This document shows, piece by piece, positions 1-53,148 of a stretch of DNA of 64,000 nt. The DNA is from a virus. Taxonomy: Duplodnaviria > Caudoviricetes. How positions within the stretch are numbered: the first letter of the stretch is position 1; the number at the start of each line of letters is the position of its first letter. The translations under genes and the position numbers were made by a program. The stretch is taken from positions 1-64,000 of IMG/VR virus record IMGVR_UViG_3300035182_002389. The stretch is one strand, 5' to 3'. Under the pieces are notes generated by a model that had not been told where the DNA came from, made no database searches, and worked only from the letters and a program-made list of their open reading frames with translations.

Positions 1-30
1 CGGCCCCCCCCCCCCCCCCCCCCACAATAG

Positions 31-36490: not shown

Positions 36491-36566
36491 AAGGACGACC
36501 TTCGGTCGAGCACGGGCTTTGCCCGAGGACGCGCCTTCGGCGCGAGGACGGCCTTCGGCCGAGGAA
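36491..36566 (+). repeat. Family C array of four mini-hairpins
   Basis: Units [G/C]A-CG-stem-TTC/TTT-stem-CG-AG with different stems. Confidence 0.88.
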
Positions 36567-37044
36567 GGGAGAAGCGAGCCCGTGAAACGACAAGGCATCG
36601 ACTACATCCGGCCCTACATCGTCATCACGCGCGACCACGCCGAGGCCTTGTTCCCGGAGTGGCCGACACTTGTCGACGGGTGTGGCAAGGCCATCCTCGA
36701 CATGGGCGGCCCTGTCATCCTCCGCATTCACGAGCCTCGCGCGAAGGATAGGGGGCGCCACCACTTCACCTTCGAGGCCCCCTCGAACAACAAGACCCTC
36801 ACGATGTGGCGGTCGAGAGACGAGGTCGCCACCGCGGCCTTCAAGAACCCGCCGTGAGCGGCCCCATTCCCATCACGAAGTACGTCGACGGCAAGAAGGT
36901 TCCCTGCTGCCCGTACTGCGACGAGGCTCCGCTCGACGCTCGCAAACCGTCGAAGGATGGCAGCGTGCTCTGGGACTGCTGCGGATGCCTCGGCGTCTGG
37001 TTGTTTCGAGAAGGCTACTGGATCGCATTCTGAGAGGATTCGAG

Positions 37045-37722
37045 ATGATCATCGTAGAGCCCAGCGTCGTGATCGATGGCCCCGTGGACGGGGCCAAGAT
37101 GCTCCGCGATCTCGAATGGATCGCGCGCCACTGCTACAAGAGCGAAGGGCTCATCTGCGAGGGCAGCGCAGAGAAGATGGCGAAGAAGCTCTTCGAGAGC
37201 GACCCGCCCCACGTCGCCATGGGCGATCACATCACCCTGCGCTGCGTCTTCATCTGCGACCGCGGCGTCTCGCACGAGATGGTCCGCCACAAGATCGGCG
37301 TCGCCTTCGCGCAAGAGTCGACCCGCTACTGCAACTACAGCAAGGACAAGTTCGAGCGGCAGATCACGGTCATCCGTCCGCCGAACCTCAAGCGGCCCGA
37401 GCGATGGGAGAAGGCCATGCGAGACGCCGAAGAGGCGTACATGGAGATGCTCGACGCGGGCGACCCTCCCGAGATCGCGCGCTCGGTGTTGCCGAACGCG
37501 ACCAAGACCGAGGTCGTCTGCACGCACAACATCACGGCCTGGCGCCACATCTTCAACCAGCGGGCGGTGAGCAAGCGCGCGCACCCGCAGATGCGTCAGG
37601 TGATGGCGCCGCTGCTCTCGTGGTGCCGAGAGACGATCCCCGTCCTCTTCAACGACCGCGTCCCTGCGCCGCTCCCGGAGGGCGTGAAGCCCGCGATCGT
37701 CACCGTGGAGTGCCGGGAATGA
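37045..37722 (+). CDS. thyX: flavin-dependent thymidylate synthase
   Basis: RGVSHEMVRHK...QESTRY; ARSVLPNATKTE; NITAWRHIFNQR; AHPQMR. Confidence 0.92.
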   Translation: MIIVEPSVVIDGPVDGAKMLRDLEWIARHCYKSEGLICEGSAEKMAKKLFESDPPHVAMGDHITLRCVFICDRGVSHEMVRHKIGVAFAQESTRYCNYSKDKFERQITVIRPPNLKRPERWEKAMRDAEEAYMEMLDAGDPPEIARSVLPNATKTEVVCTHNITAWRHIFNQRAVSKRAHPQMRQVMAPLLSWCRETIPVLFNDRVPAPLPEGVKPAIVTVECRE

Positions 37723-38336
37723 GCGACCGCGAGGAGATGCGCAAGAACCCGTGGATCTTTCACGTCTTTCCTCCGAAGGTCGAGACGTGCACGGTGTGCG
37801 GCGGCTGCAAGTGTCAGAACCACCCGAAGATGCTCGTCTACCTCGACGGGCCGAGCTGGTCGCGCGAGCAGATGGTGCCTCCAGGCACAACGGTGCAAGA
37901 GCTGTCGGACTGGTGCGACAAGCTCCCTCACGTTCGACCTTTCCCGGTCCCCTGGGAAGGCATCGAGCGCCTTCACGCCGTCCTCAACGGCTTGCGGCAA
38001 GTCGTGCCCCCGGACGACGAGCTTCAGGCCATGGGGTTCGAGGTCGAGGGGCTCCTCGTCATCGTCGTGCCTCACAAGGCCGCGCGCCGGCCGATCTCGC
38101 CGCCCACCGTGAGCCCCTTGAACTGAGATGGACGCGAGGACCGCTTGGATCTTCGCGGGCGCAGTGTGGTGCTGCACCCTGCTCAGCATCGGCGTTACGC
38201 GGCTCTTGATCTGGAGGCTGCGCAAGAAGGTCGTCAGGCTCGAAAAGGCCGCCGCCCTGCACGACGAATGGTCGAAATCGAGGAAGGCGTCCGACAAAGG
38301 GACGCGCGTCCTCGACCTCGACCTTCACGACGAAGG

Positions 38337-38672
38337 CTAGTCGCGGTCTCGGAGCGCGCCGAGGACCGAGTAGGCCGCGCCGGCTGCGAGGCGGTCCATG
38401 TTCTCTTGGTGGCGGGCCTCTGGAGTCATCGAAGCGAGGCGGGTCTGGTCCTTGTTCCACATCCAGATGCCGACGCCCACCAGGCCGACCACGAGACCGC
38501 CGACGAGCAGGGTGCCGGTCGTGATCCCGGTCTGCTGCGGGGGCGCGGCATAGCCGATGGGCTGCGTGAACTGCGGGTCAGCGACGGGGACGACGGGAGC
38601 AACGACCGCTCCGGTGGAGGCGTTGCAAAGGAGGGGGCGACGGTACGGAGCGGCCATGGGCGGATCGTACAT
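38337..38672 (-). CDS. small membrane protein (virion-like)
   Basis: TM GTLLVGGLVVGLVGVGIWMW; isolated minus-strand gene. Confidence 0.55.
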   Translation of the reverse strand: MYDPPMAAPYRRPLLCNASTGAVVAPVVPVADPQFTQPIGYAAPPQQTGITTGTLLVGGLVVGLVGVGIWMWNKDQTRLASMTPEARHQENMDRLAAGAAYSVLGALRDRD

Positions 38673-38730
38673 GGCGTGAGATGACGCGACAACCGCGTCT
38701 ACGGGCAGGCGGCAGGAAAGGCGGGTGGCG

Positions 38731-40781
38731 ATGCTGAGTCGAATCACAGCGCAGCGCAAAAGGCGCTGTTTTATGGTCTACGACATGGAGTGGATCCCGG
38801 GCCAGTTGGAGGTCCGTCTCCTCGGCCTGTACGACGGCGACCGATACCGCGCGTTCCACAAGGTCGACGACTTCCTCAACGCGGTGCTGGTGCGTGAGAA
38901 CGCGGACAAATGGCTCTACGCCCACTACGGCGGCATGGCCGACGCGCAGTTCCTCCTCCAGCGCCTCGCCTCGCGCGCGGACGAGGGCTTTCAGATCGAC
39001 GCGTCCTTCTCGGGCTCGTCGGCCATCATCATCCACGTCACGCGCGGCGAGCTGAGCTGGCACTTCATCGACAGCTTCTGGCTGCTGCGCGATCGGCTCT
39101 CGAAGATCGGCGAAGCGGTCGGCCTCGAAAAGATGGGCGAAGAGTACGCCTGCGACAACTTCCCGAACTGCGGACACGTCGACAGCAACGAGATGAAGTA
39201 TCTCGATCCCTGCTCGTGCACGCACTCCTATGGAGCGCACGACAAGCAGCCGGGCACCAAGGACCTCGCGTGCCTCGCGTGCGGGTGCAGGAAATACGAC
39301 GGCGATCACCCCTACGCGATGTGCGTCTTCTGGGCGCCGATCGCCGAGCTGACGACGTACAACGAACGCGACTGCGTCATCTTGTACAAGGCCATCGAGC
39401 GCTTCGAGCAGACGCTGCTCGATCTCGGCGGCCAGCTCCAGATGACGATTGCCTCGTGCGCGATGCACCTCTTTCGTCGCAAGTACCTCCAAGACGACAT
39501 TCGCACCGTCGCCGCCGTCAACGGGTGGGCTCGAAAGGCCTACACGTCTTCACGCGTGGAGGTGTTCCAGACCCACTGTGAGAACGCTCACTATTTTGAC
39601 CTGAACTCGTCTTTTCCGTTCGCGATGACATTTGACTGTCCTGGCAACGTGAAGAAGATGCGCGCGAAGAAGCTGCCTCCCTACGGCAGCATCTACATCG
39701 CCGAGTGCGAGATCATCGTGCCCGAGATGTACCTGCCGCCGCTGCCGTTCCGGCACGACGGGCGCGTCTTCTTCCCGACGGGCACGTGGACGAGCTGGTT
39801 CTCGAACATCGACCTGGAGCTGCTTCAGAAGCGCGGCGGACGAATCGTGAAGGTGATTCAGTCCATCGAGTTCGAGAAGCAATCCTCTCTTCGCGAGTAC
39901 GCGATCGACATCTATGCAAAGAGAAAAGCCGCGACGACGAGCTACGAAAAGCTCATCCTCAAGTATCTGTTGAATAGCCTTGGGGGCGGGATGCGGATGG
40001 CGCCCTTGGCCGCATCCCGAGCCCCCTCTGGCGCCCATAGGAACTCTACGGAAAGTTCGGCGAGCGCACCGAGAAGACCTCGATGCTGCTCCATCCAACG
40101 TCGACCGACTGTCCTCACACGCCGAAGCATCGGTGCGACAGTTGGCCCATCTGCCCGCACGCCATCGAAGGCGTCGAGTGCAACCTCTGCATCCAGATGC
40201 TGTTCCCTGGGTGTTTGCTCGTCACCAACGAGGTCGAGCTGGCGCACGAGTGGGTGCCCATCGCGGTCCACATCACGGCCACCGCCCGCAAGAACCTCGA
40301 AGGTCACCTCTGGAATGCGCAGGAGGACATCTACTACTGCGACACCGACAGCGTCATCACGACCGTGCAGCTCCCGAGCGATCCGACCACCCTCGGCGCG
40401 CTCAAGCTCGAAGACGAGATCCGTAAGGGCGAGTTCATCGCCTGCAAAATCTACGCGGTCGAAGTCATCGACGAGAAGACTGGCCACGGTCACTGGAAGA
40501 CCAAAGCAAAAGGCTTCTCCAAGATGAACTACAGCAAGTTCGTCGACGTGAAGCTCGGCAACGACATCAAGCTCGCGCGCATGACGCGCATCCGCGAGCT
40601 GTATCGAAAGGGCAAGATCGTCCCCGAGGAGAACATCGTCGCCAAACGCCTCGTGCAGAAGTGCATGGCGAAGCGCTGCATGCTCCCGTCGGGACAAAGC
40701 CGCCCTTGGACGATCGAGGAAATCCAGAGAAACCGCATGGATCTCGGCATCGACATCGATCCCATGATCCTGTCGGATTGA
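38731..40781 (+). CDS. polB: family B DNA polymerase, reading frame interrupted by a 65-nt insertion in motif B
   Basis: ExoI YDME, ExoII HYGGMAD, ExoIII YNERD, motif A DLNSSFP and KYLLNSL in frame +1; LYGKFG, YCDTDS, KIY and KAKG in frame +3. Confidence 0.9.
39982..40046 (+). other. 65-nt hairpin-forming intervening sequence between CTT and CTC Leu codons
   Basis: gggggc-gggatgcgg / ccgcatccc-ga-gccccc stem; removal restores LNSLYGKFG. Confidence 0.85.
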
Positions 40782-40831
40782 CGTTCGCCCTGGGCGACAC
40801 ATATTACGCAGATCCGCAAAAGGCTGAACCG

Positions 40832-41416
40832 ATGGCGAAGATGAACCTGTCGACGCGCACCCTCTTGGCCGTGGGCATCACGATGATGGCGGTGGAAGCC
40901 GCCCGCATCCTGCTCGGCCTCACGGCAATCCTGTCGACGCGCCTCGTCGGGTTCATCTCCGTCGGTCTCGGCGCGTCCATCGTGATCGAGACCCTCGTCA
41001 TCGCGTTGCTGTCGCGCATCTCGTCGACGCCCAAGATCATGCGCTCGTTCGCGAACGCGGCGCTCCCCGGGCTCTGGATCGTCGCCTACTACTTCACGGG
41101 CGGGGCTCGCGCGGTCGCGGTCTCGCTCGGGATCTACTTCGTCATCTTGAACGCGATCGAGCTGTTCGGCGCGCGCAGCCGGAGCACCGCGAAGATTTCG
41201 ACGGCGGTGCAGCAATCCGGCGGGGTGACGATGGCGTGCAATGAGCTGTGCACGTGCGAAGCGTGCCAAGGCTACGACGACGCCGTTGAAGCGCTCGTCG
41301 CTGCGGAGGCGTCCCCGGACGACCTGCAAGACCCCGTGCGCCGATTCGTGCTCGCGAGAACGCGAATGGTGAAGGCCCACGAAGAAGACGAAGCTGTCGA
41401 ACCGCCGCTCGTGTGA
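40832..41416 (+). CDS. multi-TM membrane protein with C-terminal Cys motif
   Basis: About four TM segments; ALPGLW similar to ILPALW of the downstream paralog. Confidence 0.7.
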   Translation: MAKMNLSTRTLLAVGITMMAVEAARILLGLTAILSTRLVGFISVGLGASIVIETLVIALLSRISSTPKIMRSFANAALPGLWIVAYYFTGGARAVAVSLGIYFVILNAIELFGARSRSTAKISTAVQQSGGVTMACNELCTCEACQGYDDAVEALVAAEASPDDLQDPVRRFVLARTRMVKAHEEDEAVEPPLV

Positions 41417-41655
41417 GGAGAAGTCCATGAAGATCCTTCAAATCGTCCGCCGCACCACCCGCACCATCGCCGGTTCGTTCTTTCTCGGCCTCGGGTCGAG
41501 CCTCCTCGGCGTGCCGAACGAGACCTTCGACGAGTGGATGAAGATGGCTCTTCTCCACGACGTCGTGAGCGCGCCGTGAGCAACGACGAAGCCTCCGCCC
41601 CGCCCTCGAACTCAAGCACAAGGTCGGCCTCGCCGTCCTTGGTGCGACGTGGTTC

Positions 41656-42147
41656 GTGCAAGCGATCGCGGCAATCTACTTCATCGCCGTCGTTCCCGCG
41701 CATCACGTTGGAGCCCTCTGCACTCTCATCGCAGCGATGTATCTGATTCGAGGTGCAAGCGTCACGTTTCTCACGACGACCGTTTCGTTCCGCCCGGTTG
41801 CGAACGAGATCCTTTCGGCGATCCTTCCGGCGCTCTGGGCCGTCGCGCTCTACAAGGGCTCGGACTCCCGAGCGATCGTCCTGGTCTCGGCGGCGTGGTT
41901 GCTTGTAACCGCCGCGCAAGCGATCGGCGGGACCACCGTGAAGGTGTGGAGGGTCATACGGATGATGCGCGGCGAGATCGACGAGGATGGCGATGACCCG
42001 AGCTGTCCCGACTGCGTCGAGACGGGGCTTGCTCACAAAGCGTTCTTGGACGCGGGCCGCCGTGGCGACGACATGGACGAGACGGGGCGCGCACTTTTTG
42101 AGGCTACGGCGAGGATGTACAAGGCGCACGGCAAGGAGGGGCCGTGA
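41656..42147 (+). CDS. multi-TM membrane protein, paralog (5' end uncertain)
   Basis: TM segments then CPDC; the hydrophobic frame extends upstream without a start codon. Confidence 0.6.
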   Translation: MQAIAAIYFIAVVPAHHVGALCTLIAAMYLIRGASVTFLTTTVSFRPVANEILSAILPALWAVALYKGSDSRAIVLVSAAWLLVTAAQAIGGTTVKVWRVIRMMRGEIDEDGDDPSCPDCVETGLAHKAFLDAGRRGDDMDETGRALFEATARMYKAHGKEGP

Positions 42148-42576
42148 AGACGCCTCCCATGCGCGTCGAGGGCATGCCTGAGAGCCCCGAGCGAACCGCC
42201 AAGCGGCTCGGCTTGTCGAAAGCCGTCGTCGATTCGCTGCGGCGTCTGCTTGGCATGGGGCCGAAGAAGAAGACCGCGCCGAAGAAGGTCCGCCAGTTGC
42301 TCGATCTCCTCCACGGCGGACATCAAGAAGTGTGGGTCTTCTGGGAGGACACCGTCAAACCGACGAAGAACGTCCGGTCGGCCGCAGAGTGGCACTGCCA
42401 CGTGACCGGAACGCGCACGTTCGACCGCCACTCGCTGTCGGCCTTCACGGGCGTGCCCGTCGAGGTGCTGATGTCGGACGACCTGAAGCTGCTCCTCCCC
42501 TACGGCATCCGTCTTGCGCGGTAATGACAATCATGAGCTTGCCGCGCGAGAAGAGAGCCGCCTATTGCAAGCGTTC

Positions 42577-42585
42577 TGGTATCGT
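42577..42585 (+). promoter_or_regulatory. extended -10 (TGGTATCGT), leaderless promoter candidate
   Basis: 6 nt before ATG 42592; same motif precedes other virion-like genes. Confidence 0.5.
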
Positions 42586-42591
42586 CAAAAC

Positions 42592-43584
42592 ATGTCACAT
42601 GCGCCCGTGATGTACACGCTGTCCGCGCCGAGCCTTTCGGCCCTCGGACAGATCCAAGGAAACTTCAACGACGGCGATCTTGGCGTCGTGGGCCGCGTGT
42701 TCTACGTCTATCGCTCGGCCATTCCTGCGCTGCCGCCCATAGGTGGAACCCTCGCCTACGGAAAAGGGTATTGGGCGCCGTTCAACGATGTCCCCCTCAG
42801 TGAGACGACGCGCGAAATCATCGTCGTGGCAAGCGGGACAACCTCAGCGTTTCGGACGCCCGTCGGCTCGTATTTCGCGGCTCATTCCGAAGACGTGCAA
42901 GTCGACATTTCGACCGACGGCGGTACGAACTGGATCGAGCAGCAATACGGTCCCGACTACAACGCCTACTACTCGGGCATGTGGAACCCGCCGTACGAAC
43001 AGCCGATGAGCGTGCGCGATGTTGCTTCTGGCATCTGGATTTCGGGGGGCTTCCCGCCCGCGGGCTGGCTCGTCCGAATCCGATGGATCGAGCGGACCGC
43101 GGTCTTCTTTCCGCGCACCGTGAGCCCGACGAGGTTCGACTTCAACGGGATCGCCTGGATCGTGAACAACGCCGTGTCGTGGACGACGAGCAACGAGTTG
43201 TACAATCCCAACGGGGTTATCGTTCCGCCTGGGCCCAGCGGGTTCGTTCCTGAGCTGTGGCGCGTAGGACGACATCGCGGAGGGCTCAACCGATCCACGG
43301 TCGGCAAAGACTTTCACGGGTCGGGCCGCCGCTTGCTGCCTTATTTCCGCGGCCCGCAAGCCATCGTGGCCGATCCCAACGGGCTGGTGTTCATCGGCAC
43401 GTCCGACATCGCGGGCCCGTCGCTTTGCAAGTTGAAGTTTCGCGTCTGCTACTACAGTCCAACGCTTCGCGCCCGTACTCCGTTCGCGCCCGGACTCATC
43501 ACGCGTTTTGCGAAGCTCGATCGGCATAACGGCAACTCCACCACCGTCCGCAAGGCGCAAACGATCTACGTGGATCCGTCCTGA
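42592..43584 (+). CDS. beta-rich putative structural or receptor-binding protein
   Basis: Trp/Gly/Pro-rich, atypical codon usage; DISTDGGTNW motif. Confidence 0.55.
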   Translation: MSHAPVMYTLSAPSLSALGQIQGNFNDGDLGVVGRVFYVYRSAIPALPPIGGTLAYGKGYWAPFNDVPLSETTREIIVVASGTTSAFRTPVGSYFAAHSEDVQVDISTDGGTNWIEQQYGPDYNAYYSGMWNPPYEQPMSVRDVASGIWISGGFPPAGWLVRIRWIERTAVFFPRTVSPTRFDFNGIAWIVNNAVSWTTSNELYNPNGVIVPPGPSGFVPELWRVGRHRGGLNRSTVGKDFHGSGRRLLPYFRGPQAIVADPNGLVFIGTSDIAGPSLCKLKFRVCYYSPTLRARTPFAPGLITRFAKLDRHNGNSTTVRKAQTIYVDPS

Positions 43585-43605
43585 TGAAGTGGTAGTCTTT
43601 TTTCC

Positions 43606-43702
43606 GATGCGACCGTGAAGCCGTGGTCCTTTAGCATTCCGGTCGGAGTTCTTTAGGGTGCCGTTCGGCGCCACTTTAGGATCACGCCTCCACGGTCGCA
43701 TC
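43606..43702 (+). ncRNA. candidate structured small RNA
   Basis: 12-bp closing stem, 8-bp inner stem, two hairpins, three CTTTAG junction motifs; TGGTAGTCT promoter at 43590. Confidence 0.5.
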
Positions 43703-44676
43703 TGAGCTTTTGATGCTCCCCGCAGATTCTCTCCATCGCCCCATCACGCTCGCGCCCCTGACGGGGGCGGCGTGGAGGACGCCATGGGAGATCGAAGCCG
43801 TTGCAAAGATCGTGGTCGAGGGGATCGTCGAGACTGCACGCGCGCGTGCGCGCTGAGCGCCTGGAAGCTCTGGACGCGCGTCATGGGCTCAACGTGGCCC
43901 GTGCCCGCAGGGAAGTTCAAGAAGCGTCAGGCGATGAGCTGTCGGTGCCGCAAGCACCCCGTCGGGAGCCCCAAGGTCGGAGGGTCGCTCTGCCACGGGG
44001 GCGCCTATCATCCGGCGACCGTCGAGCGCATCGTCGGCAAGCGCCTCGCGCGCGATTGGCTACGCTTCGGTGAGACGGAGGAACGATGAAGCACGTGATC
44101 CTGGTCGGCCTCGGCCTCTACGTCGTCGTGATGTTCCTCGTCAGCGTCAACCGCACACGCTACGTGATGGCAGGGATGGCGAAGCTGAGGGGCGGAGCGA
44201 CGCTTCCCTTCGCTTGGGCCTACTGGAAGGGCTGGGTCGGGGTCGCGTGGTTCACGCTCTCGGGCATGGTCACCATCCCGTACGAACTCGCCCTCATCGC
44301 TCGCAAGTACGTCAAAGTCCGACGCTCGCAGGATGAGATGGGCGCTGTCGAGGTCCTCGCGGCGCCGAAGGATCCTCCGAGCGAGGAGCCGCCGAGCGAG
44401 GGCCCGTGATCAAGTACGCGATCCTCGCCTACGGGCTCGTCGGGATCACCAACGCGGTCTGGTGGTGCTGGACGGTGCTCGCATTTGCGGCGGCCAAGCA
44501 AGGCTACGACCGCATCCCCTTCGAGGATCTGACCGCACGAATGTGGTGGGGAGCCTTCCTGTTCGGGCTCAAGCAGGCGCTCACCTGGCCCGTGGACGTC
44601 GTGCGACGATTGCGCATGTACGCGTACGGGCGAGGGTGGGTGGACAGGCTCCCGCCCTCGTGAGGCTCGCGAGGGT

Positions 44677-45078
44677 TCAGATGCTGGAGCGGCGGCGCGG
44701 CGGCGAGATCGCGAGCGAGCCCATCGAGACGGGGCCGCGCGCGATCGAGTACCTGCCGCCGACCGAGATCCCCTCGCTGCGCAGGCTCGATCGACGCTTG
44801 TCCGACTCGACCTTGTGGATGGCCGCGTCGATCGTCTGAACCAGATGCGTGCGCAGCCAGCCCTTGACCTCGGCGCGCTCGGCGACCGTGAACTTCGATC
44901 GGTAGCCGATGAACTCGACGTGCTGGACGGCGGCGGCCACGAGGTTGCGGCGGTAGTCGTGAAGGTTTCGCCACACCTCCGAGTTCAGGTCCACGGCGAC
45001 CTTGTGCCGCATGGACGCGAGGTAGTCTTTCGGGCTCTGGCCCATGAGGGCCTCGAAGACATCGTTGAAGTGGCTCAT
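44677..45078 (-). CDS. hypothetical protein
   Basis: TATACT 7 nt upstream of ATG on the minus strand. Confidence 0.55.
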   Translation of the reverse strand: MSHFNDVFEALMGQSPKDYLASMRHKVAVDLNSEVWRNLHDYRRNLVAAAVQHVEFIGYRSKFTVAERAEVKGWLRTHLVQTIDAAIHKVESDKRRSSLRSEGISVGGRYSIARGPVSMGSLAISPPRRRSSI

Positions 45079-45099
45079 GTGCGCGAGTATAGCTCCGAG

Positions 45100-45114
45100 G
45101 GCTTGGCGCAAGCC
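45100..45114. promoter_or_regulatory. GGCTT-N5-AAGCC operator candidate between divergent genes
   Basis: ggctt-ggcgc-aagcc. Confidence 0.55.
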
Positions 45115-45142
45115 AGCGCGCAAACGGTGGTACGCTGCGCTC

Positions 45143-45535
45143 ATGGACAGCACCTGGAAGTGGGCGGCCGGAGCATTGGGGCTCGGCGTGGTCGGCTACT
45201 TGGTCCTGCGGCCGGGCGCTTCCGCGGACGCTCCCAAGCTCGTGCTTCGGACCGAGTGGAACGCATCGCACCGCTCGCCGCTGCTCACCGAGGTCTCCGC
45301 CGCGGAACTCGCGGCGGCCTCGGCACACATCCCGAGGCTCCCCACGCAGGGAGAGCTTGCCGCGACCATCGTGCGCGGCGGCGTCGTTTCGGTGCGCCCT
45401 GTCGGCATCGAGTCCTACGACGCGAGCACGGGCATCGGACAAATCTACGATCGCACCGATCTCGCCGCCCCGCAGTCGTGGTCGAACGTGCGCGTCGCCG
45501 ATTTCGTGGGCGCCGTTTCGTTCCTGATCCACTGA
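45143..45535 (+). CDS. N-terminally anchored membrane protein
   Basis: WAAGALGLGVVGYLVL TM; TGGTACGCT 6 nt upstream. Confidence 0.6.
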   Translation: MDSTWKWAAGALGLGVVGYLVLRPGASADAPKLVLRTEWNASHRSPLLTEVSAAELAAASAHIPRLPTQGELAATIVRGGVVSVRPVGIESYDASTGIGQIYDRTDLAAPQSWSNVRVADFVGAVSFLIH

Positions 45536-45552
45536 GGCGCCAAGCGCCGTTC

Positions 45553-45918
45553 CTAGACCGTCGAAGCCTTGAGCACGAGGTTTCGCGGCAGCGGGCCCCG
45601 GTAGAGGATCTGCTCCAGGATGACGTCGTCGCCGTCGAAGTCGTACCCGATCGAACCGCCCGCCTTTCGCAGCGCCGCGACGTTGATCTCGACGAGCATC
45701 GGCGTCGACTTGTCGTGACACCCCGCGCTCTCGGCGTAGTCGCACGCCGTGTCCTCGTTGTTCGTGAGGTAGAGGCCTTCGGTCAACGCGGCGCTGCGAA
45801 GCTTCCTCAACCCCTTCTCGCTCGTCCCGTGCCACAGGCGCGTGGGCCAGATCCAGACGGAGACAGGCTTGTGCGAAGTCGACGTCTTCGCGCGGGCGGG
45901 CTTCTTCACGGCGCTCAC
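45553..45918 (-). CDS. ADP-ribosyltransferase-like protein
   Basis: LWHGTS...GLYLT..A.DYA...EQI.Y. Confidence 0.55.
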   Translation of the reverse strand: MSAVKKPARAKTSTSHKPVSVWIWPTRLWHGTSEKGLRKLRSAALTEGLYLTNNEDTACDYAESAGCHDKSTPMLVEINVAALRKAGGSIGYDFDGDDVILEQILYRGPLPRNLVLKASTV

Positions 45919-46271
45919 CGCGGCAGATGGTCTTTTGCGAGCATCACGGTGCCGCCGAGGACCATCGCGGTGCCGGCGAGAAACCTCCACGACAGATCGC
46001 CCGCGGGCGAGTCGATCATGCCGCCGACGCCGAGTCCCGCGCCGGCGGTCGCGATCCCTGCGTAGACGAAATCGCTACGATGGGCGACGGTCCCGTAGAT
46101 GGAGAGCGCGGCGCCGGCGGCAGAGGCCACCATCGCGCCGGTCTTCATCCACGCCGGCAAGGGCGCGGGCGTCGTGGCCGGGGCGTCCGCGCCGACGCTC
46201 GCGCGGGCGGCGAGCGGAGCTGAACGAACCATCGAAACAGAGCGAGCGAGGGAGGGGCGGGCGTAGGACAT
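45915..46271 (-). CDS. three-TM membrane protein
   Basis: Three Gly/Ala-rich hydrophobic segments; TGGTAGCCT upstream. Confidence 0.6.
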   Translation of the reverse strand: MSYARPSLARSVSMVRSAPLAARASVGADAPATTPAPLPAWMKTGAMVASAAGAALSIYGTVAHRSDFVYAGIATAGAGLGVGGMIDSPAGDLSWRFLAGTAMVLGGTVMLAKDHLPR

Positions 46272-46311
46272 GAGGGACCTCGACGTCGAGGCTACCATGG
46301 ACGCGGGCCTT

Positions 46312-46977
46312 CTACGAACGCCGCGCGTTGCTCGCAGCGATCCTTCGTGCCTCGCGCGCGGCAGCTCGGCGCACGTCGGAGAGCTGCTTCTTCAGCCTCG
46401 CGATCTCGGCCTGCGGCATCGCGCGGACGTCCGGGCCCGGGTAGTGGTAGCTGCGGTACGGGTAGACGGCCTTGGGCAACGGCAGACCCGTGTCGAACTC
46501 GCGGCCGAGACGCTCTTCGATCCAGCCCGGCGCGCCGTACTCCTCGCGCACGTACGCGTCGAGCGGAATGACGCGCAACAGGGCAAGCTTGCGGTACGAG
46601 GTCGCGGGCACGAACATCTCGCCGCCGTAGCGCCCGTGCACGCCTGCGTCGTGAACGATGGAGGGGTCGACCCTGAACTCGGCGAGGAAGGGGCGCATGT
46701 ACCCGTGCTCGTTCACCCACGTCTCCGGGCGCGGGCCGAGGTAGATGCCGGGCCTTCCCGAGCGGTCTTCGAGCGCAAACGCGTTGTCCTCGGGCGCGAA
46801 CTTCGCGTCGAGCTTGAAGCGTGCGCGCTCGGTCAGGTGATACCAGACCGGCTGCACGAGGGAGTGGCGTTGCGACAGGCTCGACACCGATGACACCTCG
46901 GAAGGGATCGTACCACGCGCCCAGACTCGAAGGTTGTCGGCCGACAGCGTAGACTCGGGCGCATGCTCCTGTTCCAC
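46312..46977 (-). CDS. ADP-ribosyltransferase-like protein (start uncertain)
   Basis: WYHLT...GIYL...GEMFVP. Confidence 0.45.
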   Translation of the reverse strand: MEQEHAPESTLSADNLRVWARGTIPSEVSSVSSLSQRHSLVQPVWYHLTERARFKLDAKFAPEDNAFALEDRSGRPGIYLGPRPETWVNEHGYMRPFLAEFRVDPSIVHDAGVHGRYGGEMFVPATSYRKLALLRVIPLDAYVREEYGAPGWIEERLGREFDTGLPLPKAVYPYRSYHYPGPDVRAMPQAEIARLKKQLSDVRRAAAREARRIAASNARRS

Positions 46978-47319
46978 GGCACGTCCAAGCGGCAGTGGAG
47001 TCGCCGCCTTTCCGGCGAGCAGACGCTCTACCTCGTGAACAGCGCGAAGGAAGCTTGGAGCTACGCGTACCACGCCGCAGAAGAGGACGAGCTGGAAGGC
47101 CGCACTCCCGAGCCCATCGTGCTCGCGATTCAGCTCGGCGATCTGCGAGGCCTCACGCGCCTGCCGGACGACGCCGCGATCCGTTCCGGCGAGCTGCCCG
47201 CGTCGGCGAGCTGGCGCGACACGCTTCGCGCGGTCGGCTCGTTTGCGGTCTTCGGGCGCATCGAGCGCTACAAGCGGTTCTTCGCGAGGGTCAGGCCCGC
47301 GACGAGCTTGCGCGAATAG
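46963..47319 (+). CDS. ADP-ribosyltransferase-like protein
   Basis: LFHGTS...LYLV..A.SYA. Confidence 0.5.
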   Translation: MLLFHGTSKRQWSRRLSGEQTLYLVNSAKEAWSYAYHAAEEDELEGRTPEPIVLAIQLGDLRGLTRLPDDAAIRSGELPASASWRDTLRAVGSFAVFGRIERYKRFFARVRPATSLRE

Positions 47320-47540
47320 CCCGCCGAGAGTCGAGGGCTCGGCCCGATGCGCGAGTCGGGTGAGGGTAGCGGTGAGGGGCCCGCACAACCTCCCCCTGAG
47401 CCCGCGCCCGTCCAGCGCACGCACGGCCTCGGGTGAAGGCTGCGGCGCCGGGGGCACGGGCACCCCACGGCGCTGCTGGCTCAGATTCTAGGTGGAGCGG
47501 GTGGCTGCGGGGCGCGTCCAGCGTGCGAAGCACGCGCTGC

Positions 47541-47590
47541 CCGTTCCCGTTGCCAGTGAGCGAAGCGAACGTTCCCGTTCCCGCTCTCGC
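47541..47590 (-). repeat. Family A right-half fragment, inverted
   Basis: Reverse complement matches the copy at 53448. Confidence 0.8.
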
Positions 47591-47627
47591 TCTGCTGGCT
47601 GCGGGTGCGCCGACGCTCGCCCCAACG

Positions 47628-48452
47628 TCAACCGAGAACGCCGTAGAGCGTCACGTTGCGCGGCAGGCTGATCGTCTGGGGGCTGCCGTTCTTGAACTCG
47701 ATCGTGAAGGGCATGCCGCCGCCGAGAACGATCGGCTTGAGGTCCAGGGGCACCGAAATGGAATAGAACCCGTCGGCGATGGGCGCCATGAGCCCGTTGA
47801 CGCGCGTCTGATACATCGCCGCGGCGTTCGCGTTCTGCGTCTGCGCGGGAACGTTGGCGCTCGAAGGCGGCCAGACGATGTTACGCCCTGCTCGGACGAC
47901 GTCAGGCATCGCTGCCGCACCGTTTGCGTCGAACTCCCACGAGATGCCCGTCGGTCTGAACTGTCGACCGCTCACGAAGGCCATGATCGCCTGCGATCCG
48001 CCGTTGCCGGGAATGCTGGGAGCGATGCCCGGGGGCAGGTTCCACGCGAACGGAATGCTCGCGTCGAACGGGCCGAGCTTGGCACGCTGCGCCGGGTTGA
48101 GCGTCGCCCGCGCGGGAGCGCGCAGCGCCGCCGCGTTGAACGCCAGGGGCGCCGCGGTGCGCACGGGGGACGTTCCCTGCTGGCGAAGCGCAGCCATCGC
48201 CGCGCCGTCGGCACCGCCGAGGTGCGCGAGGGCGGAGGCCGCGTGGACGTCGGGCGTCACGAGGCCGCCGAAGGGCTGCACGCCGGCGGTGTGGGCGGCG
48301 TACATCGAGGCCGCGTGGACGTCCGCGGTGAGCAGGCCCGAGAGGGGATGGTTCGCCGAGCGACGGAGCTGCTCGGTGTACGAGAGGCCGCGCGCGGCGG
48401 GCGCGCCGCCGGTCTGGGCGTGGTTCTGACCGCAAGAGGGGCAATAGGGCAT
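47628..48452 (-). CDS. CPxC-family virion-like paralog 4
   Basis: MPYCPSCGQNH; PFGGLVTPDVHAASALAHLGG repeat; beta-rich C-terminal domain. Confidence 0.7.
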   Translation of the reverse strand: MPYCPSCGQNHAQTGGAPAARGLSYTEQLRRSANHPLSGLLTADVHAASMYAAHTAGVQPFGGLVTPDVHAASALAHLGGADGAAMAALRQQGTSPVRTAAPLAFNAAALRAPARATLNPAQRAKLGPFDASIPFAWNLPPGIAPSIPGNGGSQAIMAFVSGRQFRPTGISWEFDANGAAAMPDVVRAGRNIVWPPSSANVPAQTQNANAAAMYQTRVNGLMAPIADGFYSISVPLDLKPIVLGGGMPFTIEFKNGSPQTISLPRNVTLYGVLG

Positions 48453-48522
48453 GGAGGATCTCCTTGCTGCCGAGGCTACCACTTTTGCTTCGACTCGTGC
48501 CAAAACAAGAAGACGCCCTCGC

Positions 48523-48537
48523 GGCTTTCGACAAGCC
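48523..48537. promoter_or_regulatory. GGCTT-N5-AAGCC operator candidate
   Basis: ggctt-tcgac-aagcc, intergenic. Confidence 0.55.
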
Positions 48538-48556
48538 GTGCGCCTCACACCTCGCG

Positions 48557-48640
48557 AGACGAAAAGGACGCGCCTTCGGCGCGAGCACGACCTTCGGTCG
48601 AGGACGCTCCTTCGGAGCGAGGACGCGCTTCGCGCGAGGC
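48557..48640. repeat. Family C array of four mini-hairpins
   Basis: gagacgaaaaggacgcgccttcggcgcgag cacgaccttcggtcgag gacgctccttcggagcgag gacgcgcttcgcgcgag. Confidence 0.9.
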
Positions 48641-48648
48641 GAGAAGTC

Positions 48649-49131
48649 TCAGAAGCGGTTGTACGTGAGCTTGCCCGAAGGGAACGCGAGGGGCGCGTCG
48701 GTCGGGTTGTAGAGGATGACCGAGAGCTGCTTGGTCACAGGCCAGCCTGCGAACGCGGGGTTCAGGGCGACGTCTTGGTTCGCGCGGGCGAGGTAGAGCT
48801 GGCCCGCGCTCGTCGGCACGGGTTCGAGCGTGAGCTTGCCGAACGACCTGTGAGCCTTCGCACGGTTGATGACGTCGCGGCCGACCTTGATCTCGGCGAT
48901 GTAGAGGTCGGGGCTCTCGAAGGTCACCGTGACGGGCTTGATGGGCGAGCCCGTGTAGTAGATCGCCTCCTTGAACCCGTGCGCGGGGACGATCCCCGCG
49001 CCGGGCAAGGGCATCGCGTACGCCCCACGGTGGAACATGCTCTCGATCATCGCGAACGCTTTTGACGAGCGCGGCACGATGCCGGCGCCCGTTTGGGCGT
49101 GCGCGGTTCCACAGTGGGGGCAACGCTTCAT
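48649..49131 (-). CDS. CPxC-family virion-like paralog 3
   Basis: MKRCPHCGTAH; IAEIKVGR; VILYN..F..G. Confidence 0.7.
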   Translation of the reverse strand: MKRCPHCGTAHAQTGAGIVPRSSKAFAMIESMFHRGAYAMPLPGAGIVPAHGFKEAIYYTGSPIKPVTVTFESPDLYIAEIKVGRDVINRAKAHRSFGKLTLEPVPTSAGQLYLARANQDVALNPAFAGWPVTKQLSVILYNPTDAPLAFPSGKLTYNRF

Positions 49132-49153
49132 GGTGCGGCCTTCTCTCGCGAGA

Positions 49154-50464
49154 TCAGGAGACCAAAGCCGAGAGCGTCACGTTCTGCGGGACGCTCGTGA
49201 GCGCGACCGGACCGGGCCCGCGGTTGACGAACTCGACCCAGAAGCCCGAGCCCGCCTGACCGGGCGCCGACTGACCGAGCTTGAACGCCTTGAGCGCGCT
49301 GAGCGAGACCGATCGGGTTGCGCGCTGCTTCGTCCCCTGCGACGCGGCCCGCGGACCCGCGCTGCCCGCCTGGTAGACGTAGCCGTTGTTCGCGTGGATG
49401 GCCGACAGCTCCCAGCCCGCCGAGGCCGCAGCGCTCTGCCACTGGAGCGTGTTCGGCTTGATGGTCTCGCCGTTCTCGGGCAGGTACACGCGGAAGTTCG
49501 CGCCGACGGGGTAGTTGGTCCCCGGCGGGAAATGCGGCACCGGCGGGTCCGGGAACGCGAGGGTCGCTTGATGCGGCGCGACCGTTGCGCGGGCAGGGAC
49601 TGCGACCTTGGCGGCCGTGTTGCCGATGCGCCGATACGCGACGGGCGCCGCGGTGCGCGCCGGAAGCGCGTTCGCCTGCTGCATGGCCTGGGGGACGCTC
49701 TGCATGCCGGCCGGGCCGCCGAGGTGCGCGAGGGCCGAGGCCGCCTTCACGGGGGGCGTGACCAGGCCGCCGAAGGGGTTTGGCGCGCCCATGTGCGCGA
49801 GCGAAGAGGCCGCGTGCACGCCGGGGGTCACGAGGCCGCCGAAGGGCAGCGCCGCGCCGGTGTGCACGGGGGTCCACGACGCCGGCAGGTGGAGCACCTC
49901 GCCGACCTTGAGGTCCATGAAGTTGCCGTCGATCTTGTTGGTCGCCTTCTGCGGGTTCGCAGCGGCCAGCGCCTTCCACATGTCCTTGCGGCCCGTGTGC
50001 TTGTGCGCGATGTGCGAGGGCGTGTCGCCAGCCCGCACGATGTAGACGTTGCCGCTCGCCTTCTGCTCGGCGGGCTGCACGGTGGCGGCCTGCGCGGCGG
50101 CCTTCTGCGCGGAGGCGATGAGGTTCTTCTTCGCCGTGGTCGCGCCGGTGTGCATGGGGACCGTGCCGTTCACCGACTGGCCGTAGCCGTGGCTCTGGGC
50201 GCTCGGGGCGACGGAGCGGGCGTTGAACTGCGACACGGGAACGGGCATCGCCGTGAGGTGCTGCGGGGCGCCTGCGTGCGCGGCCTGGTAGGACGGACGG
50301 CGCGCGTTCTCGATGGCCGCCTTCGCCGCCGCTTCCTGGAGGACGGCGGCTGCGTACACCTGCTGCGTCTGCGAGCGGTAGGGGCTCGCCTGGGGGAGCG
50401 CGGGCGCCCCGGTCGCGGCGTGGGGGAGAGGGTGGTTCGTACCGCAAAAGGGGCAGAAGGGCAT
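49154..50464 (-). CDS. CPxC-family virion-like paralog 2 with LysM domain
   Basis: MPFCPFCGTNH; YIVRAGDTPSHIAHKH..W.ALAAAN..L.VGEVLHLP. Confidence 0.78.
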   Translation of the reverse strand: MPFCPFCGTNHPLPHAATGAPALPQASPYRSQTQQVYAAAVLQEAAAKAAIENARRPSYQAAHAGAPQHLTAMPVPVSQFNARSVAPSAQSHGYGQSVNGTVPMHTGATTAKKNLIASAQKAAAQAATVQPAEQKASGNVYIVRAGDTPSHIAHKHTGRKDMWKALAAANPQKATNKIDGNFMDLKVGEVLHLPASWTPVHTGAALPFGGLVTPGVHAASSLAHMGAPNPFGGLVTPPVKAASALAHLGGPAGMQSVPQAMQQANALPARTAAPVAYRRIGNTAAKVAVPARATVAPHQATLAFPDPPVPHFPPGTNYPVGANFRVYLPENGETIKPNTLQWQSAAASAGWELSAIHANNGYVYQAGSAGPRAASQGTKQRATRSVSLSALKAFKLGQSAPGQAGSGFWVEFVNRGPGPVALTSVPQNVTLSALVS

Positions 50465-50540
50465 GGGAGAGCTTCCTTGGTGGATCGAGAACGAAGCGGC
50501 GGACCTCGCGCGCGAGTTCACGCGCGAGATCCGCGGAGGA

Positions 50541-51281
50541 TCAGGAGACGAAGCCGGTCGGCATGATCGCCGCGCCCGTCGCGTTGTGGAACACGATGTA
50601 GAGGTGGTTGCTGTTGATGGTCGCACCCATCGGCAGGTTCTTCGTCCACACCATACCGCCCGTGTCGAGCTGAATCCCTCGGCACACGCCATCGTTGGCG
50701 GCGGGAACGCCGATCGGGGTCGCCGAGCACGCGTCGTACGTGCCGGTGCGACCGGAGGCGTCGAGGGTCGGGAGCGCCTCGTTGCGGCCGACCTTGACCG
50801 AGGAGACCTGAAGACCAGGACTCGTGATCGTGACGCTGCGCAGAGCGATGTCGCTCGGCGTCTGATAGAGCGCGAACACGGTCGCGCCCGGGGCGATGGG
50901 CTTGTCGAGCGCGGGCAGTGCGATCGCGCTCGGCGGCGTCGGCGGCGTCGACGGCGTCGAGGAACCGCCGGAAGGCGCCGTGAGGTTTAGTCGGAAGCGG
51001 CGCGCGTTGAACAGGAAGGGCGCGCCGGTCGCGGCGCCGGCCATGAGACCGTTGACGGCGGCGCGCTCCTTCTGCTGCTGCGCCTGGATGACCGAGGCGG
51101 CCTTCTTCGCCTTGAGCTGCTGCTGCACGTGGAAGCTCGACGGGCGAGCCGTCAAGCCGTGCTGGGCCTGCTCGGCAATGGCCGCGGCGTAGATCCGCTG
51201 GACCTGCGAGCGGTAGGGGCTCGCCTGGGGGACGGCCCCGACGGCGGCGTGGTTCTGGCGGCAGTGGGGGCAAAGCGACAT
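50541..51281 (-). CDS. CPxC-family virion-like paralog 1
   Basis: MSLCPHCRQNH; PQASPYRSQ shared with paralog 2; VSSVKVGRNE. Confidence 0.7.
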   Translation of the reverse strand: MSLCPHCRQNHAAVGAVPQASPYRSQVQRIYAAAIAEQAQHGLTARPSSFHVQQQLKAKKAASVIQAQQQKERAAVNGLMAGAATGAPFLFNARRFRLNLTAPSGGSSTPSTPPTPPSAIALPALDKPIAPGATVFALYQTPSDIALRSVTITSPGLQVSSVKVGRNEALPTLDASGRTGTYDACSATPIGVPAANDGVCRGIQLDTGGMVWTKNLPMGATINSNHLYIVFHNATGAAIMPTGFVS

Positions 51282-51345
51282 GAGGACGGCTCCTGATCTC
51301 TCGGGTTCGTCTCGCATCGTACCACTGCCGTACGGGTCCGAGAAC

Positions 51346-51360
51346 AGCTTGTCGCAAGCC
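51346..51360. promoter_or_regulatory. GGCTT-N5-AAGCC operator candidate
   Basis: agctt-gtcgc-aagcc in the divergent intergenic region. Confidence 0.5.
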
Positions 51361-51438
51361 GTGAAACCCTGAACGCTTTGCCAGCGACTAGATACATTGA
51401 CAACTCATGTACGTTGTGCGATCCTCACGTCTGACTCC

Positions 51439-53148
51439 ATGAAGAAACCGAACGCGGGAAGCGAAAAGAACGCGCCGTTGGCGCGAGCACGCGCTTCGCG
51501 CGAGGACGCTCCTGCGGAGCGAGGACGCTCCTTTGGAGCGAGCGGCGAGAAGCAAAAGTACGTCGCGGGGCGCCCCGTGCGGGTCGGCGACAGGTTCGGC
51601 GAGCTGACCGTCACCGAGCAGATCGAAGCGCCCGACCACAAGACCTACCAAGGTCGGCACTGGCTCTGCACGTGCGACTGCGGCAACCCTGCGATTCGCA
51701 CGACCACGACGCTTCAGCAAGCGCTCGCAAAAGGGCACGTCTCTTCCTGCCGAGAGTGCTGGCTGGAGCTGCTCCGATCGCGCACGGCGGAGACGTTCGA
51801 CCAGGAACGAACCAAGACGCGCACCGCGCTCGCATCGCTGTGGGCGCAGCATCGAACGCTCTACAGCGTCGCCTACGACGCGCGCGAAGAAGAACGGATT
51901 CGAGACGCCATCGAAGAGGACGGGATCCCGATCCGGTCGGAGGAGTCGCTCTCCGAGCAGTACGCCGTCGAGCCCTCACTGCTGAACGTCGACGCTCCCT
52001 CGTCGGCGGAGACGACCACGGCCCCGGTGCAGCGCGCCGCGTACCTCTATCCCGTCGGAGGCGGCGAGCTTTGCTGGGCGTGCATCACGTGTGGCGAGAC
52101 CTTTTCGCGAGGGTTCGGGTGCACGCTCTGCATCGAGCCCGTCTGCATGGACTGCGTGAGGAGCGAGGCGCACGTCCACACCGAAGACGAAGACGGCCTG
52201 ATGCTGCATCAGATTGCGGCGGAGTTCGATCGGAGCCGCGAGCGCGTCCGGCAGATGGAGACGCAGGGTCTCACCAAGCTGCGTCACCTCCACATGGCTT
52301 CACTCGTCAGGACCCTCGGGGCGGACTACGTGAGCGTGCACGCGTTTCTTCGCGCCTTGCACCCCGAGCTTCTCGACGTCGGCGAGATGCTTGCTGTGCT
52401 CGACTGGCGCGAGCGCATGGCGCGCGAAGCGAAGGTCGCCGCGTACAGGGCCGCAGAGGAGGCGGCCGAGAGGGCCGCAGAAACGCGGAGGATCATCGAA
52501 GAGCGTCGCCAGGCCAAGCGTGAAGAAGAACAGCGTCGCCGGGCCGAGCTTGCTGCCCAACCCGAGGAAGTGAGGGCGCTTCGTATTCAGCGCAACCTCG
52601 CGCGTCGTGAGACGGAGACGACGCGGCTGGCGAACGATCTCGCAGCCTGGCACGCGAACCTCGAAGCGTTGCGTGCGAGCGAGCCCGAACGAGATCGGCG
52701 CGCGGCCGAGGCGAAGAGCGCGCTCGAACTCGAACGCATCGAGAACGAGAAGAGGCGCAGCGCCGAGGTGATGGAAGAGGCCCGTAAGACCCTCGCCACG
52801 ACCTCCGCCGTCTTCGTCCCGAGCAAGCTCAGGGTCGCCGCGCGCAAGCAAGACCTCCTCGCGATCCTCATGCTCCCCGTCGGCGAGTTCGATTTCAGCG
52901 AGGAGGTGCGAGGCGCACTCGTCGAGGCCGGCGCCGAGTACATCGGCGATCTTCTCTGCGAGCTGTCGTGCCCGCCTTCGCGATGGGTCGGACCTCTGCT
53001 CGGCGCGGAGGTGCTGTTCGCGTTGCGAGAGGTCGGCCTCAACTTCGGCGTCAACATCTACGCGCTCACGGGCAGGAAAGGCTCGGAGCTGCCGTTCGCG
53101 ACCCCGTTCGTCAAGCGGATGGGGAAGGTTTCAACCAAAAAACATTGA
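51439..53148 (+). CDS. multidomain transcription-factor-like protein (CxCxC zinc module, sigma70 region-4 HTH, coiled coil, RNAP alpha-CTD-like domain)
   Basis: GELTV..WLCTCDCGN; LHQIAAEFDRSRERVRQME..GL.KLRH; LPVGEFDFS..GALVEAG..IGDL. Confidence 0.7.
   Translation: MKKPNAGSEKNAPLARARASREDAPAERGRSFGASGEKQKYVAGRPVRVGDRFGELTVTEQIEAPDHKTYQGRHWLCTCDCGNPAIRTTTTLQQALAKGHVSSCRECWLELLRSRTAETFDQERTKTRTALASLWAQHRTLYSVAYDAREEERIRDAIEEDGIPIRSEESLSEQYAVEPSLLNVDAPSSAETTTAPVQRAAYLYPVGGGELCWACITCGETFSRGFGCTLCIEPVCMDCVRSEAHVHTEDEDGLMLHQIAAEFDRSRERVRQMETQGLTKLRHLHMASLVRTLGADYVSVHAFLRALHPELLDVGEMLAVLDWRERMAREAKVAAYRAAEEAAERAAETRRIIEERRQAKREEEQRRRAELAAQPEEVRALRIQRNLARRETETTRLANDLAAWHANLEALRASEPERDRRAAEAKSALELERIENEKRRSAEVMEEARKTLATTSAVFVPSKLRVAARKQDLLAILMLPVGEFDFSEEVRGALVEAGAEYIGDLLCELSCPPSRWVGPLLGAEVLFALREVGLNFGVNIYALTGRKGSELPFATPFVKRMGKVSTKKH
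51463..51545 (+). repeat. Family C array, in-frame in the N-terminus of the 51439 gene
   Basis: Four units incl. gacgctcctgcggagcgag; encodes KNAPLARARASREDAPAERGRSFGAS. Confidence 0.8.

Follow-up and report, generated by a model that had tools for sequence, protein, structure and literature searches.

Small palindromic repeats are well known in bacteria, and the origin of the transposase-free ones and their strand polarity are an open question. This question is raised by a family of mini-hairpin arrays, here called Family C, in an uncultured bacterial virus (record IMGVR_UViG_3300035182_002389), of which positions 1 to 64,000 (64,000 nt; hereafter the window) were analysed together with the 202,518-bp single-contig genome that holds them: what are these arrays, and why do they all point the same way? 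The initial annotation had reported three arrays of four units in the window, and all three were recovered in place, with four adjacent units each at 36495-36563, 48568-48638 and 51470-51542, when the whole contig was scanned with a strict motif (A-CG-stem-loop-stem-CG-AG, perfect stem required). The family nevertheless extends beyond the window, where three more four-unit arrays were found at 77995, 113586 and 125684, so that the genome carries six copies, all on the plus strand (6/6). When any run of adjacent perfect hairpins was looked for, no further four-hairpin chain was found in the genome, and BLAST of the arrays against the genome itself gave no additional copy. Strict units numbered 23 on the plus strand and two on the minus strand genome-wide. 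The genome-wide comparison with shuffled sequence, which the annotation had proposed as a check, was clear: 100 Markov shuffles contained 1.7 units on average and never two adjacent units, which rules out a chance origin of the arrays.

Each copy is a small repeat of ca. 90-110 nt without genes, located in an intergenic spacer, and consists of a variable (GAGAC)n tail, an A-rich leader, GACGAAAAGG, and four head-to-tail hairpins. The tail is present on one side only and ranges from none to ca. five units. The leader reads GACGAAAAG[G/A] in five of the six copies, with A as the final base in copy 6, and GCGAAAAGA in copy 3. The start 'gagacgaaaagg', given in the annotation for two arrays, is exact in two of the three window arrays, although the variable tail precedes it. 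Every copy has exactly four units, with stems of 5-6 bp and loops of 3 nt, joined by fixed 8-nt CGAG-N-ACG linkers; the units are 16-18 nt long, and the repeat step including the joining base is 17 or 19 nt. The linker base N depends on position (C, G, G and G from the first to the fourth), with one exception each at position three (A) and position four (C). The stem vocabulary comprises six types (CGACC, CGGGC, CGCGCC, CGGCC, CGCTCC and CGCGC). On the plus strand, the 24 loops are TTC (17), TGC (4), TTT (2) and GTT (1), and 23 units are closed by a C-G pair, the remaining one by a C.A mismatch. The unit order, described earlier as shuffled between arrays, is only partly so, since the copies fall into two sub-families: copies 1, 4, 5 and 6 have units 2-3 in common, and copies 2 and 3 have units 1 and 3 in common. 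A Shine-Dalgarno-like (SD-like) trailer, GCGARAAG, follows the array in copies 1-4.

In the window, the tail and leader of copy 1 occupy 36472-36494 on the plus strand ((CGAGA)n of 3.6 units, then GACGAAAAGG), followed by hairpins at 36495-36510, 36512-36527, 36529-36546 and 36548-36563 with the stems CGACC, CGGGC, CGCGCC and CGGCC. Copy 2, also on the plus strand, begins with a tail remnant and leader at 48555-48567 (CGAGAC, then GACGAAAAGG), and its hairpins at 48568-48585, 48587-48602, 48604-48621 and 48623-48638 have the stems CGCGCC, CGACC, CGCTCC and CGCGC. The plus-strand copy 3 has a degenerate leader, GGGAAGCGAAAAGA, at 51455-51469 and hairpins at 51470-51487, 51489-51504, 51506-51523 and 51525-51542 (stems CGCGCC, CGCGC, CGCTCC and CGCTCC); its loops, which include GTT and TTT, are the most deviant of the family.

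The stems had been described as differing between units and yet self-complementary, and this description holds: 128 of the 130 stem pairs are Watson-Crick pairs, and the two exceptions are C.A on the plus strand, that is, G.T on the minus strand. Covariation was evaluated in an alignment of the six copies and two relatives, and the following values refer to units 1-3. Pairing was seen in 97.7% of the alignment cells, and four of the 17 pairs varied on both sides while none (0/17) varied on one side only. The covariation score was 0.248 as compared to 0.078 in shuffles, none of the 500 shuffles attained 0.248, and pairing fell to 23-49% when the partner columns were slid by 1-3 positions. The stem changes included no G-U intermediates and were mostly transversion pair flips, many of them G-C to C-G without a wobble intermediate. 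Judged from this covariation, the Family C hairpins are real structures that have been kept in evolution.

When the arrays are read on the minus strand, 21 of the 24 loops are GNA with a C-G closing pair, and the units hold GCGAAGC or CCGAAGG. By sequence, the minus-strand units are thus canonical, extraordinarily stable C(GNA)G DNA mini-hairpins. GNA mini-hairpins melt at 70-76 °C, bind poorly to SSB (the protein that binds single-stranded DNA), and are present at the priming origins of G4, St-1 and alpha3, at ssiA and at N4 promoters (PMC13037366); in phage N4, SSB melts a complementary-loop hairpin and leaves the GNA hairpin intact (PMC4496689). Throughout the genome, C(GNA)G hairpins whose stems have 5 bp or more are found 44 times on the minus strand vs 20 times on the plus strand, and those with recurring stems 38 vs 11 times.

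The virus encodes a protein-primed family-B DNA polymerase (PF03175, 92 bits). The PF03175 match in 39343-40527 ends at 39987, inside an open frame of 615 codons, and relatives with 65-67% identity are 650-682 aa long. The GC skew at four-fold degenerate sites was decomposed into two terms, one for the coding strand and one for the strand itself. The latter declines linearly, from ca. +0.04 at the left end to ca. -0.18 at the right end, and reaches zero near 36 kb (slope of -0.0011 per kb with t = -7.2; none of 2000 permutations was as steep), and plus- and minus-strand genes show correlations of skew with position that are opposite in sign. Such a gradient is what is expected from the time spent single-stranded in strand-displacement replication, by analogy with mitochondrial DNA. 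It therefore suggests that the minus strand is more exposed as single-stranded DNA (ssDNA) to the right of ca. 36 kb, where all six copies lie, and, on this analogy, the skew fits asymmetric strand-displacement replication begun mostly from the right end. The (GAGAC)n tail, in turn, lies only on the side that is first met by a polymerase copying the minus strand. Loop chemistry, replication mode and tail position are three independent indications that point to the minus DNA strand.

We propose that Family C is a structural or selfish repeat resembling REP (palindromic, repetitive and extragenic) sequences and bacterial interspersed mosaic elements (BIMEs), which folds on the displaced single-stranded minus strand and is copied without a transposase; we put the probability of this reading at roughly 45%. 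Anatomy, polarity, covariation and skew are observed; which strand folds, the stalling and the route of copying are inferred, as described below. During strand-displacement replication, the hairpins would fold on the displaced minus strand, where their loop type would resist SSB, and their complementarity would be maintained by selection or by correction within the hairpin. A polymerase copying the displaced strand would meet the tail first and stall at the pre-folded hairpins, and the tail would arise there by slippage. Units would then be copied and reshuffled between spacers, with no need of a transposase, by switches of template at the tails or the fixed CGAG-N-ACG linkers. The fixed linkers, the one-sided variable tail, the uniform polarity and the transposase that was not found suggest templated copying: a search for Y1 transposase (PF01797) gave no match in the virus while control genomes gave matches, and a reverse transcriptase search of the virus likewise gave no match. 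The annotation had offered a structural code read by a hairpin-binding protein or the products of a templated hairpin-insertion process; the latter appears to fit better than the former.

Two further repeat families bear on this scheme. Family-1 consists of four hairpins whose sequences are unrelated to those of Family C, with 3-9 units of (GAGAC/GAGAG)n as a tail whose side matches that of Family C, and is located at 58862-58990 in the window and at 97555-97740, 101000-101160, 102290-102480, 111300-111490 and 112050-112230 of the contig. The common tail side in Family C and the unrelated Family-1 is as expected if the polymerase stalls at folded template hairpins and slips. Family-1 and a (GGGAAC)n family share with Family C both the genome and the polarity, with GNA loops on the minus strand. 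Family C differs from these sister families in its uniform mini-hairpins with fixed 8-nt linkers, and no in-gene or strain-polymorphic copy of it was found. A (GGGAAC)n-type element adjoins copy 5 (contig 113513-113564, L140:4013-4064) and consists of a GAGATCGGGAAC core, a GCGCC.TTC.GGCGC hairpin and three GGGAAC. It fills the distance from the stop of the plus-strand gene to copy 5, and the 146-nt convergent spacer is therefore made up of two repeat elements only.

A scan of metagenomes gave, among the matches listed, two true matches, the short contigs L064 and L030 of one strain, whose identity to this genome is 94% and 97% and in which copies 2 and 6 occupy the same sites. Array 2 in L064 shows two changes in 86 nt, a leader G>A and a loop TTC>TGC, both at unpaired positions and the latter retaining GNA on the minus strand, while its flanks are 94% identical. 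Array 6 shows no changes against the strain relative, with flanks 97% identical. At the divergence of the flanks, ca. eight array changes would be expected, ca. four of them in stems, and the observed number of stem changes was zero. These comparisons provide modest evidence for constraint on the arrays between the strains. The linker pattern used for metagenomes also matches (GACGAG)n microsatellites, and hexamer microsatellites of the (GACGAG)n and (CACGAG)n types abounded in metagenomes from soil and sediment, frequently within genes or between them (loci L011-L130).

Several observations weigh against the proposed scheme. Nearest-neighbour DNA folding energies are similar on both strands and their z-scores are modest (-1 to -4). 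Since the parameter set has no GNA bonus, these energies do not separate the strands, and since GC-rich shuffles fold too, the z-scores stay modest; the case for structure therefore rests on complementarity and not on energy. The co-orientation of six of six copies, taken alone, has a two-sided chance of 0.03, and the skew gradient is indirect as evidence of replication mode. No inverted terminal repeat is shared by the two contig ends, so that the actual ends of the genome are probably missing. (A run of 20 C opens the contig, at window positions 4-23.) None of the hairpin families occurs in the right-most 60 kb, the part in which exposure of the minus strand should last longest. Neither an empty site nor a fresh insertion was seen, both orthologous sites checked being occupied, and mobility of Family C is unproven. 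Finally, template switching predicts neither the constant number of four units nor linker bases that depend on position; these look more like the outcome of functional constraint.

All six arrays lie in non-coding spacers according to a codon-usage log-odds profile, in which coding potential is flat over the arrays. The right array edge adjoins the right-hand gene in every copy, and the left side is 17-138 nt from the neighbouring gene, a distance often occupied by other repeats. Copies 1 and 4 lie between two plus-strand genes, 18 nt (start codon GTG 36582) and 19 nt from the start codon, respectively. Copies 2 and 6 lie between two minus-strand genes, copy 2 being 10 nt from the stop of the right gene (48649-48651) and copy 6 being 2 nt from the stop of the minus-strand gene. 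Copy 5 lies between convergent genes (plus on the left, minus on the right), 3 nt from the stop of the minus-strand gene, and copy 3 lies in a divergent spacer (minus on the left, plus on the right), 34 nt from the start codon GTG 51577. The neighbours around the six plus-strand copies are thus +/+, -/-, -/+, +/+, +/- and -/-, and the polarity of the arrays is therefore independent of transcription.

Copy 3 is the array that had been thought to lie in frame in the N-terminus of a regulator. Gene callers start its gene (protein P0001) at ATG 51439, which places array 3 in codons 11-35. Coding potential is neutral across the array, the PHROG match starts at residue 3 when counted from GTG 51577, and the homology of P0001 to its only relative, P0002, begins at residue 48, directly after the in-frame GTG 51577. 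The true start of this gene is probably GTG 51577, and array 3 would then belong to its 5' untranslated region (UTR); the supposed N-terminal array is probably an untranslated leader. From GTG 51577, the gene (51577-53148, plus strand) encodes an HNH-like N-terminal domain and sigma-70 region 4, and it is the only flanking gene scanned that has a Pfam or PHROG family, most of the others being orphan genes (ORFans). These include the 91-aa ORFan at 36582-36857 on the plus strand, which starts just right of copy 1 and has coding potential, and the 160-aa ORFan at 48649-49131 on the minus strand, whose stop directly precedes copy 2 in the minus-sense reading; neither has a Pfam or PHROG family. 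The next minus-strand gene, 47902-48453, has its ATG at 48453, ca. 100 nt past the leader of copy 2. A coding repeat was rejected, the unit lengths of 17 and 19 nt not being multiples of three and coding potential being flat over the six arrays. A paralogous cargo gene travelling with the array was not supported either: apart from that of copy 3, the flanking genes scanned have no Pfam or PHROG family, and they are unlike in length and orientation.

The most probable alternative is an RNA-level element, namely a polar intrinsic terminator or 3'-end stabiliser of minus-sense transcripts; the three remaining copies would serve as insulators or structured 5' leaders, located directly upstream of the ribosome-binding sites of plus-strand genes. 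The minus-sense RNA of the element consists of four hairpins and then UCCUUUUCGU, and in each of the six copies a consensus scan of the minus strand flagged unit 1 with the T-tract (TCCTTTTCGT after the hairpin) as terminator-like, canonical terminators being otherwise rare in this genome. Copies 2, 5 and 6 begin 10, 3 and 2 nt after minus-strand gene stops, and the ends of copies 1 and 4 are 18-19 nt away from the start codons that follow, immediately before Shine-Dalgarno motifs. The orientation of the arrays, however, tracks the genome and not the transcription unit: in the terminator sense, copies 1, 3 and 4 are antisense to both flanking genes, copy 3 has no gene end adjoining it in its divergent spacer, and the gene context for a terminator (hairpin and U-tract 3' of a gene in the same sense) is right for copies 2, 5 and 6 only. 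The U-tract has only four U, and stems that change mostly by transversion pair flips without G-U intermediates are unusual for selection on RNA. Rfam gave no match over the arrays, either at the gathering threshold or at E <= 1, which speaks against the RNA-level element and against a known RNA family; no tRNA genes were found. We therefore consider the RNA-level element a doubtful account of the family as a whole. Under the REP/BIME-like reading, copies 2, 5 and 6, located 2-10 nt past minus-strand stops, would probably also act as terminators or 3'-end stabilisers as a side effect.

A signal on ssDNA that is read by a protein seems unlikely. SSB-resistant mini-hairpin clusters on the displaced strand would then be landmarks in a very long protein-primed genome, such as second-strand priming sites of the ssi/G4 type, pause sites or sites of protection. 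The linkers, leader, closing pairs and unit number are invariant and the stem interiors vary freely with compensation, as would be expected of a structure recognised by a protein, and the polarity agrees with the strand exposed as single-stranded. The G4 priming origin and RSF1010 ssiA are likewise hairpin clusters with GCGAAAGC or CCGAAGG mini-hairpins (PMC13037366), and Family C resembles such priming signals on its minus strand only. However, a virus-encoded primase was not found with four Pfam families (Prim-Pol, Toprim_2, DnaG zinc ribbon and RepB primase; the RepB control was also silent). Protein-primed replicons need no internal priming, and the nearly linear skew is as expected without it. 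Moreover, there are only six copies, unevenly spaced by 3-35 kb, and the spacers also contain unrelated repeat families, which resembles junk accumulation. This reading is the structural code read by a hairpin-binding protein that the annotation had suggested; no dedicated binder is indicated, and the flanking genes are unrelated ORFans. Slightly less likely is the more specific proposal that the arrays are not junk but functional ssDNA punctuation of a giant protein-primed genome, with linkers that a host or viral factor would read to start, pause or protect second-strand synthesis.

An element mobilised by a transposase, whether REP/REPIN via RAYT, of the IS200/IS605 type, or a MITE (a miniature transposable element with inverted repeats) via a host enzyme, is very unlikely. 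The small palindromic units, the intergenic location and the strand bias do resemble targets of single-strand transposition (PMC3333891, PMC3733652). Against this, no Y1_Tnp was found in the virus, the arrays lack both terminal inverted repeats and a fixed target duplication, and their units are arranged head-to-tail, an arrangement negligible in REP families (PMC3733652). The array flanks have only an SD-like CGARAAG motif in common, in four of the six copies. Among 185,579 species genomes, the leader-plus-linker pattern occurred in none, and eight chance matches were obtained without any array. An adjacent-unit pattern gave ca. 115 chance coding matches in 401 Myxococcota genomes, with no array at the 32 loci fetched, the remaining matches being known only as 22-26-nt strings, and comparable hairpins were not found in two contigs of Myxococcota metagenome-assembled genomes with a PolB_2 gene. 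In IMG/VR, the linker pattern gave chance coding matches only, the leader pattern and the sister-family motif gave nothing, and protein queries (the copy 1 flank, PolB and a 22-sequence PolB alignment) gave no relatives; GenBank phages and PLSDB plasmids gave no BLAST match to the arrays. Within the databases searched, Family C was thus found in this virus and its 94-97% identical strain only.

Hairpin promoters of the type used by the N4 virion RNA polymerase, extruded from supercoiled DNA, are highly improbable: the 5-7-bp stem, 3-nt GNA loop, C:G closing pair, free stem interior and adjacent A4 'ruler' match their grammar exactly (PMC4496689), but no T7/N4-type RNA polymerase (PF00940) was found in the virus (the control was likewise silent), four tandem hairpins are unlike a promoter, the A-tract is on the TTC-loop strand and not the GNA-loop strand, and copy 5 lies between convergent gene ends. 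A CRISPR array (short palindromic repeats, clustered and regularly interspaced) was ruled out, in agreement with the initial annotation: instead of repeats of 24-48 nt with unique spacers, there are units of 16-18 nt whose variable parts are palindromes of six types.

Other repeats were observed around the arrays and elsewhere in the genome. The spacer left of copy 1 (36341-36471, plus strand) is made wholly of other repeats, namely a 20-bp unit (2.8 copies), a 23-bp unit (2.6 copies) with a CGCGCC.GAA.GGCGCG hairpin, and (CCCGGT)n. The hairpin of the 23-bp unit is a Family C stem with the loop in the opposite orientation. A CGGCTT hairpin (5-nt loop, AAGCCG) is found three times, at 48522-48538 and 42207-42226 (minus strand) in the window and at 120047-120066 (plus strand) of the contig, and two of the three are bordered by ACG...CGAG ends as in Family C units; next to copy 2, the strain relative has the hairpin unaltered, with the 50 nt to its left rearranged. 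Between copies 2 and 3, a 69-bp tandem repeat (49717-49865; ca. 2.2 copies with 76-80% match) lies in a high-GC block of minus-strand genes, and it is here that the two strains diverge most, one 100-nt bin holding 37 differences. Near the left end, a further hairpin family (window 3668-4074 and 11324-11338) consists of GCAACG or GCAGCG, a GNA loop and CGTTGC or CGCTGC, then CTCGGGAGGGT, plus GACCT.GCA.AGGTC. Its GNA loops are on the plus strand, and it is confined to the left 12 kb, a region whose strand skew is opposite in sign to that of the rest of the genome.

Among known systems, REP/BIME elements share with Family C short GC-rich stem-loops with conserved unpaired flanks and stems kept complementary (PMC3733652, PMC3333891), as well as an intergenic location, often directly 3' of stop codons and clustered with other repeats. 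CGTC-type REPs are likewise without a dedicated transposase (PMC3733652, PMC3333891). REP/BIME elements, however, occur in tens to hundreds of copies, whereas Family C has six in 202 kb, three of them directly 3' of genes, and it differs further from REPs in its 5-6-bp stems, 3-nt loops, genome-wide uniform polarity and viral host. REP dimers are head-to-head or tail-to-tail (PMC3733652), while all 24 Family C units are head-to-tail in tetramers. The REP tag GTAG is absent, and CGTC occurs on the minus strand only as the stem-base CG plus the linker TC and is thus half paired. REP/REPIN elements have a RAYT in the same genome, whereas no PF01797 match exists in this virus.

The d(GCGNAGC) mini-hairpins of the G4, St-1 and alpha3 origins, RSF1010 ssiA and the N4 early promoters are represented in the minus-strand units by exact GCGAAGC or CCGAAGG, and share with them the C:G closing pair, the GNA loop with a free middle base, and adjacent hairpins on the strand that becomes single-stranded. 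Unlike a G4-type origin, Family C has six dispersed copies and not one origin, and no primase or virion RNA polymerase partner was found. Rickettsia palindromic elements (RPEs) and pneumococcal BOX/RUP elements also consist of modular hairpin sub-units and spread without an element-encoded enzyme (PMC3184786). RPEs lie typically in frame inside genes, whereas all Family C copies are in spacers, the lone apparent case inside an open reading frame being probably a 5' UTR.

REP-type palindromic repeats are thus known from bacteria, and the form seen in Family C is not described for a virus; its function is unproven. What is new here is the very regular mini-hairpin tetramers, conserved at the two sites checked, the skew gradient, and a tail side that ties polarity to the displaced strand. 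Should the arrays be functional ssDNA signals, they would punctuate replication in a new way, in what is the largest candidate tailless phage known, and the displaced strand would determine the polarity of all hairpin families. On the REP/BIME-like reading, four mini-hairpins with fixed linkers and a one-sided tail, in a genome with a protein-primed polymerase and a linear skew, offer a testable link of hairpin polarity to the exposed strand. If true, this link would explain the polarity of all repeat families in this virus and would provide a model for the transposase-free spread of REP-like elements.

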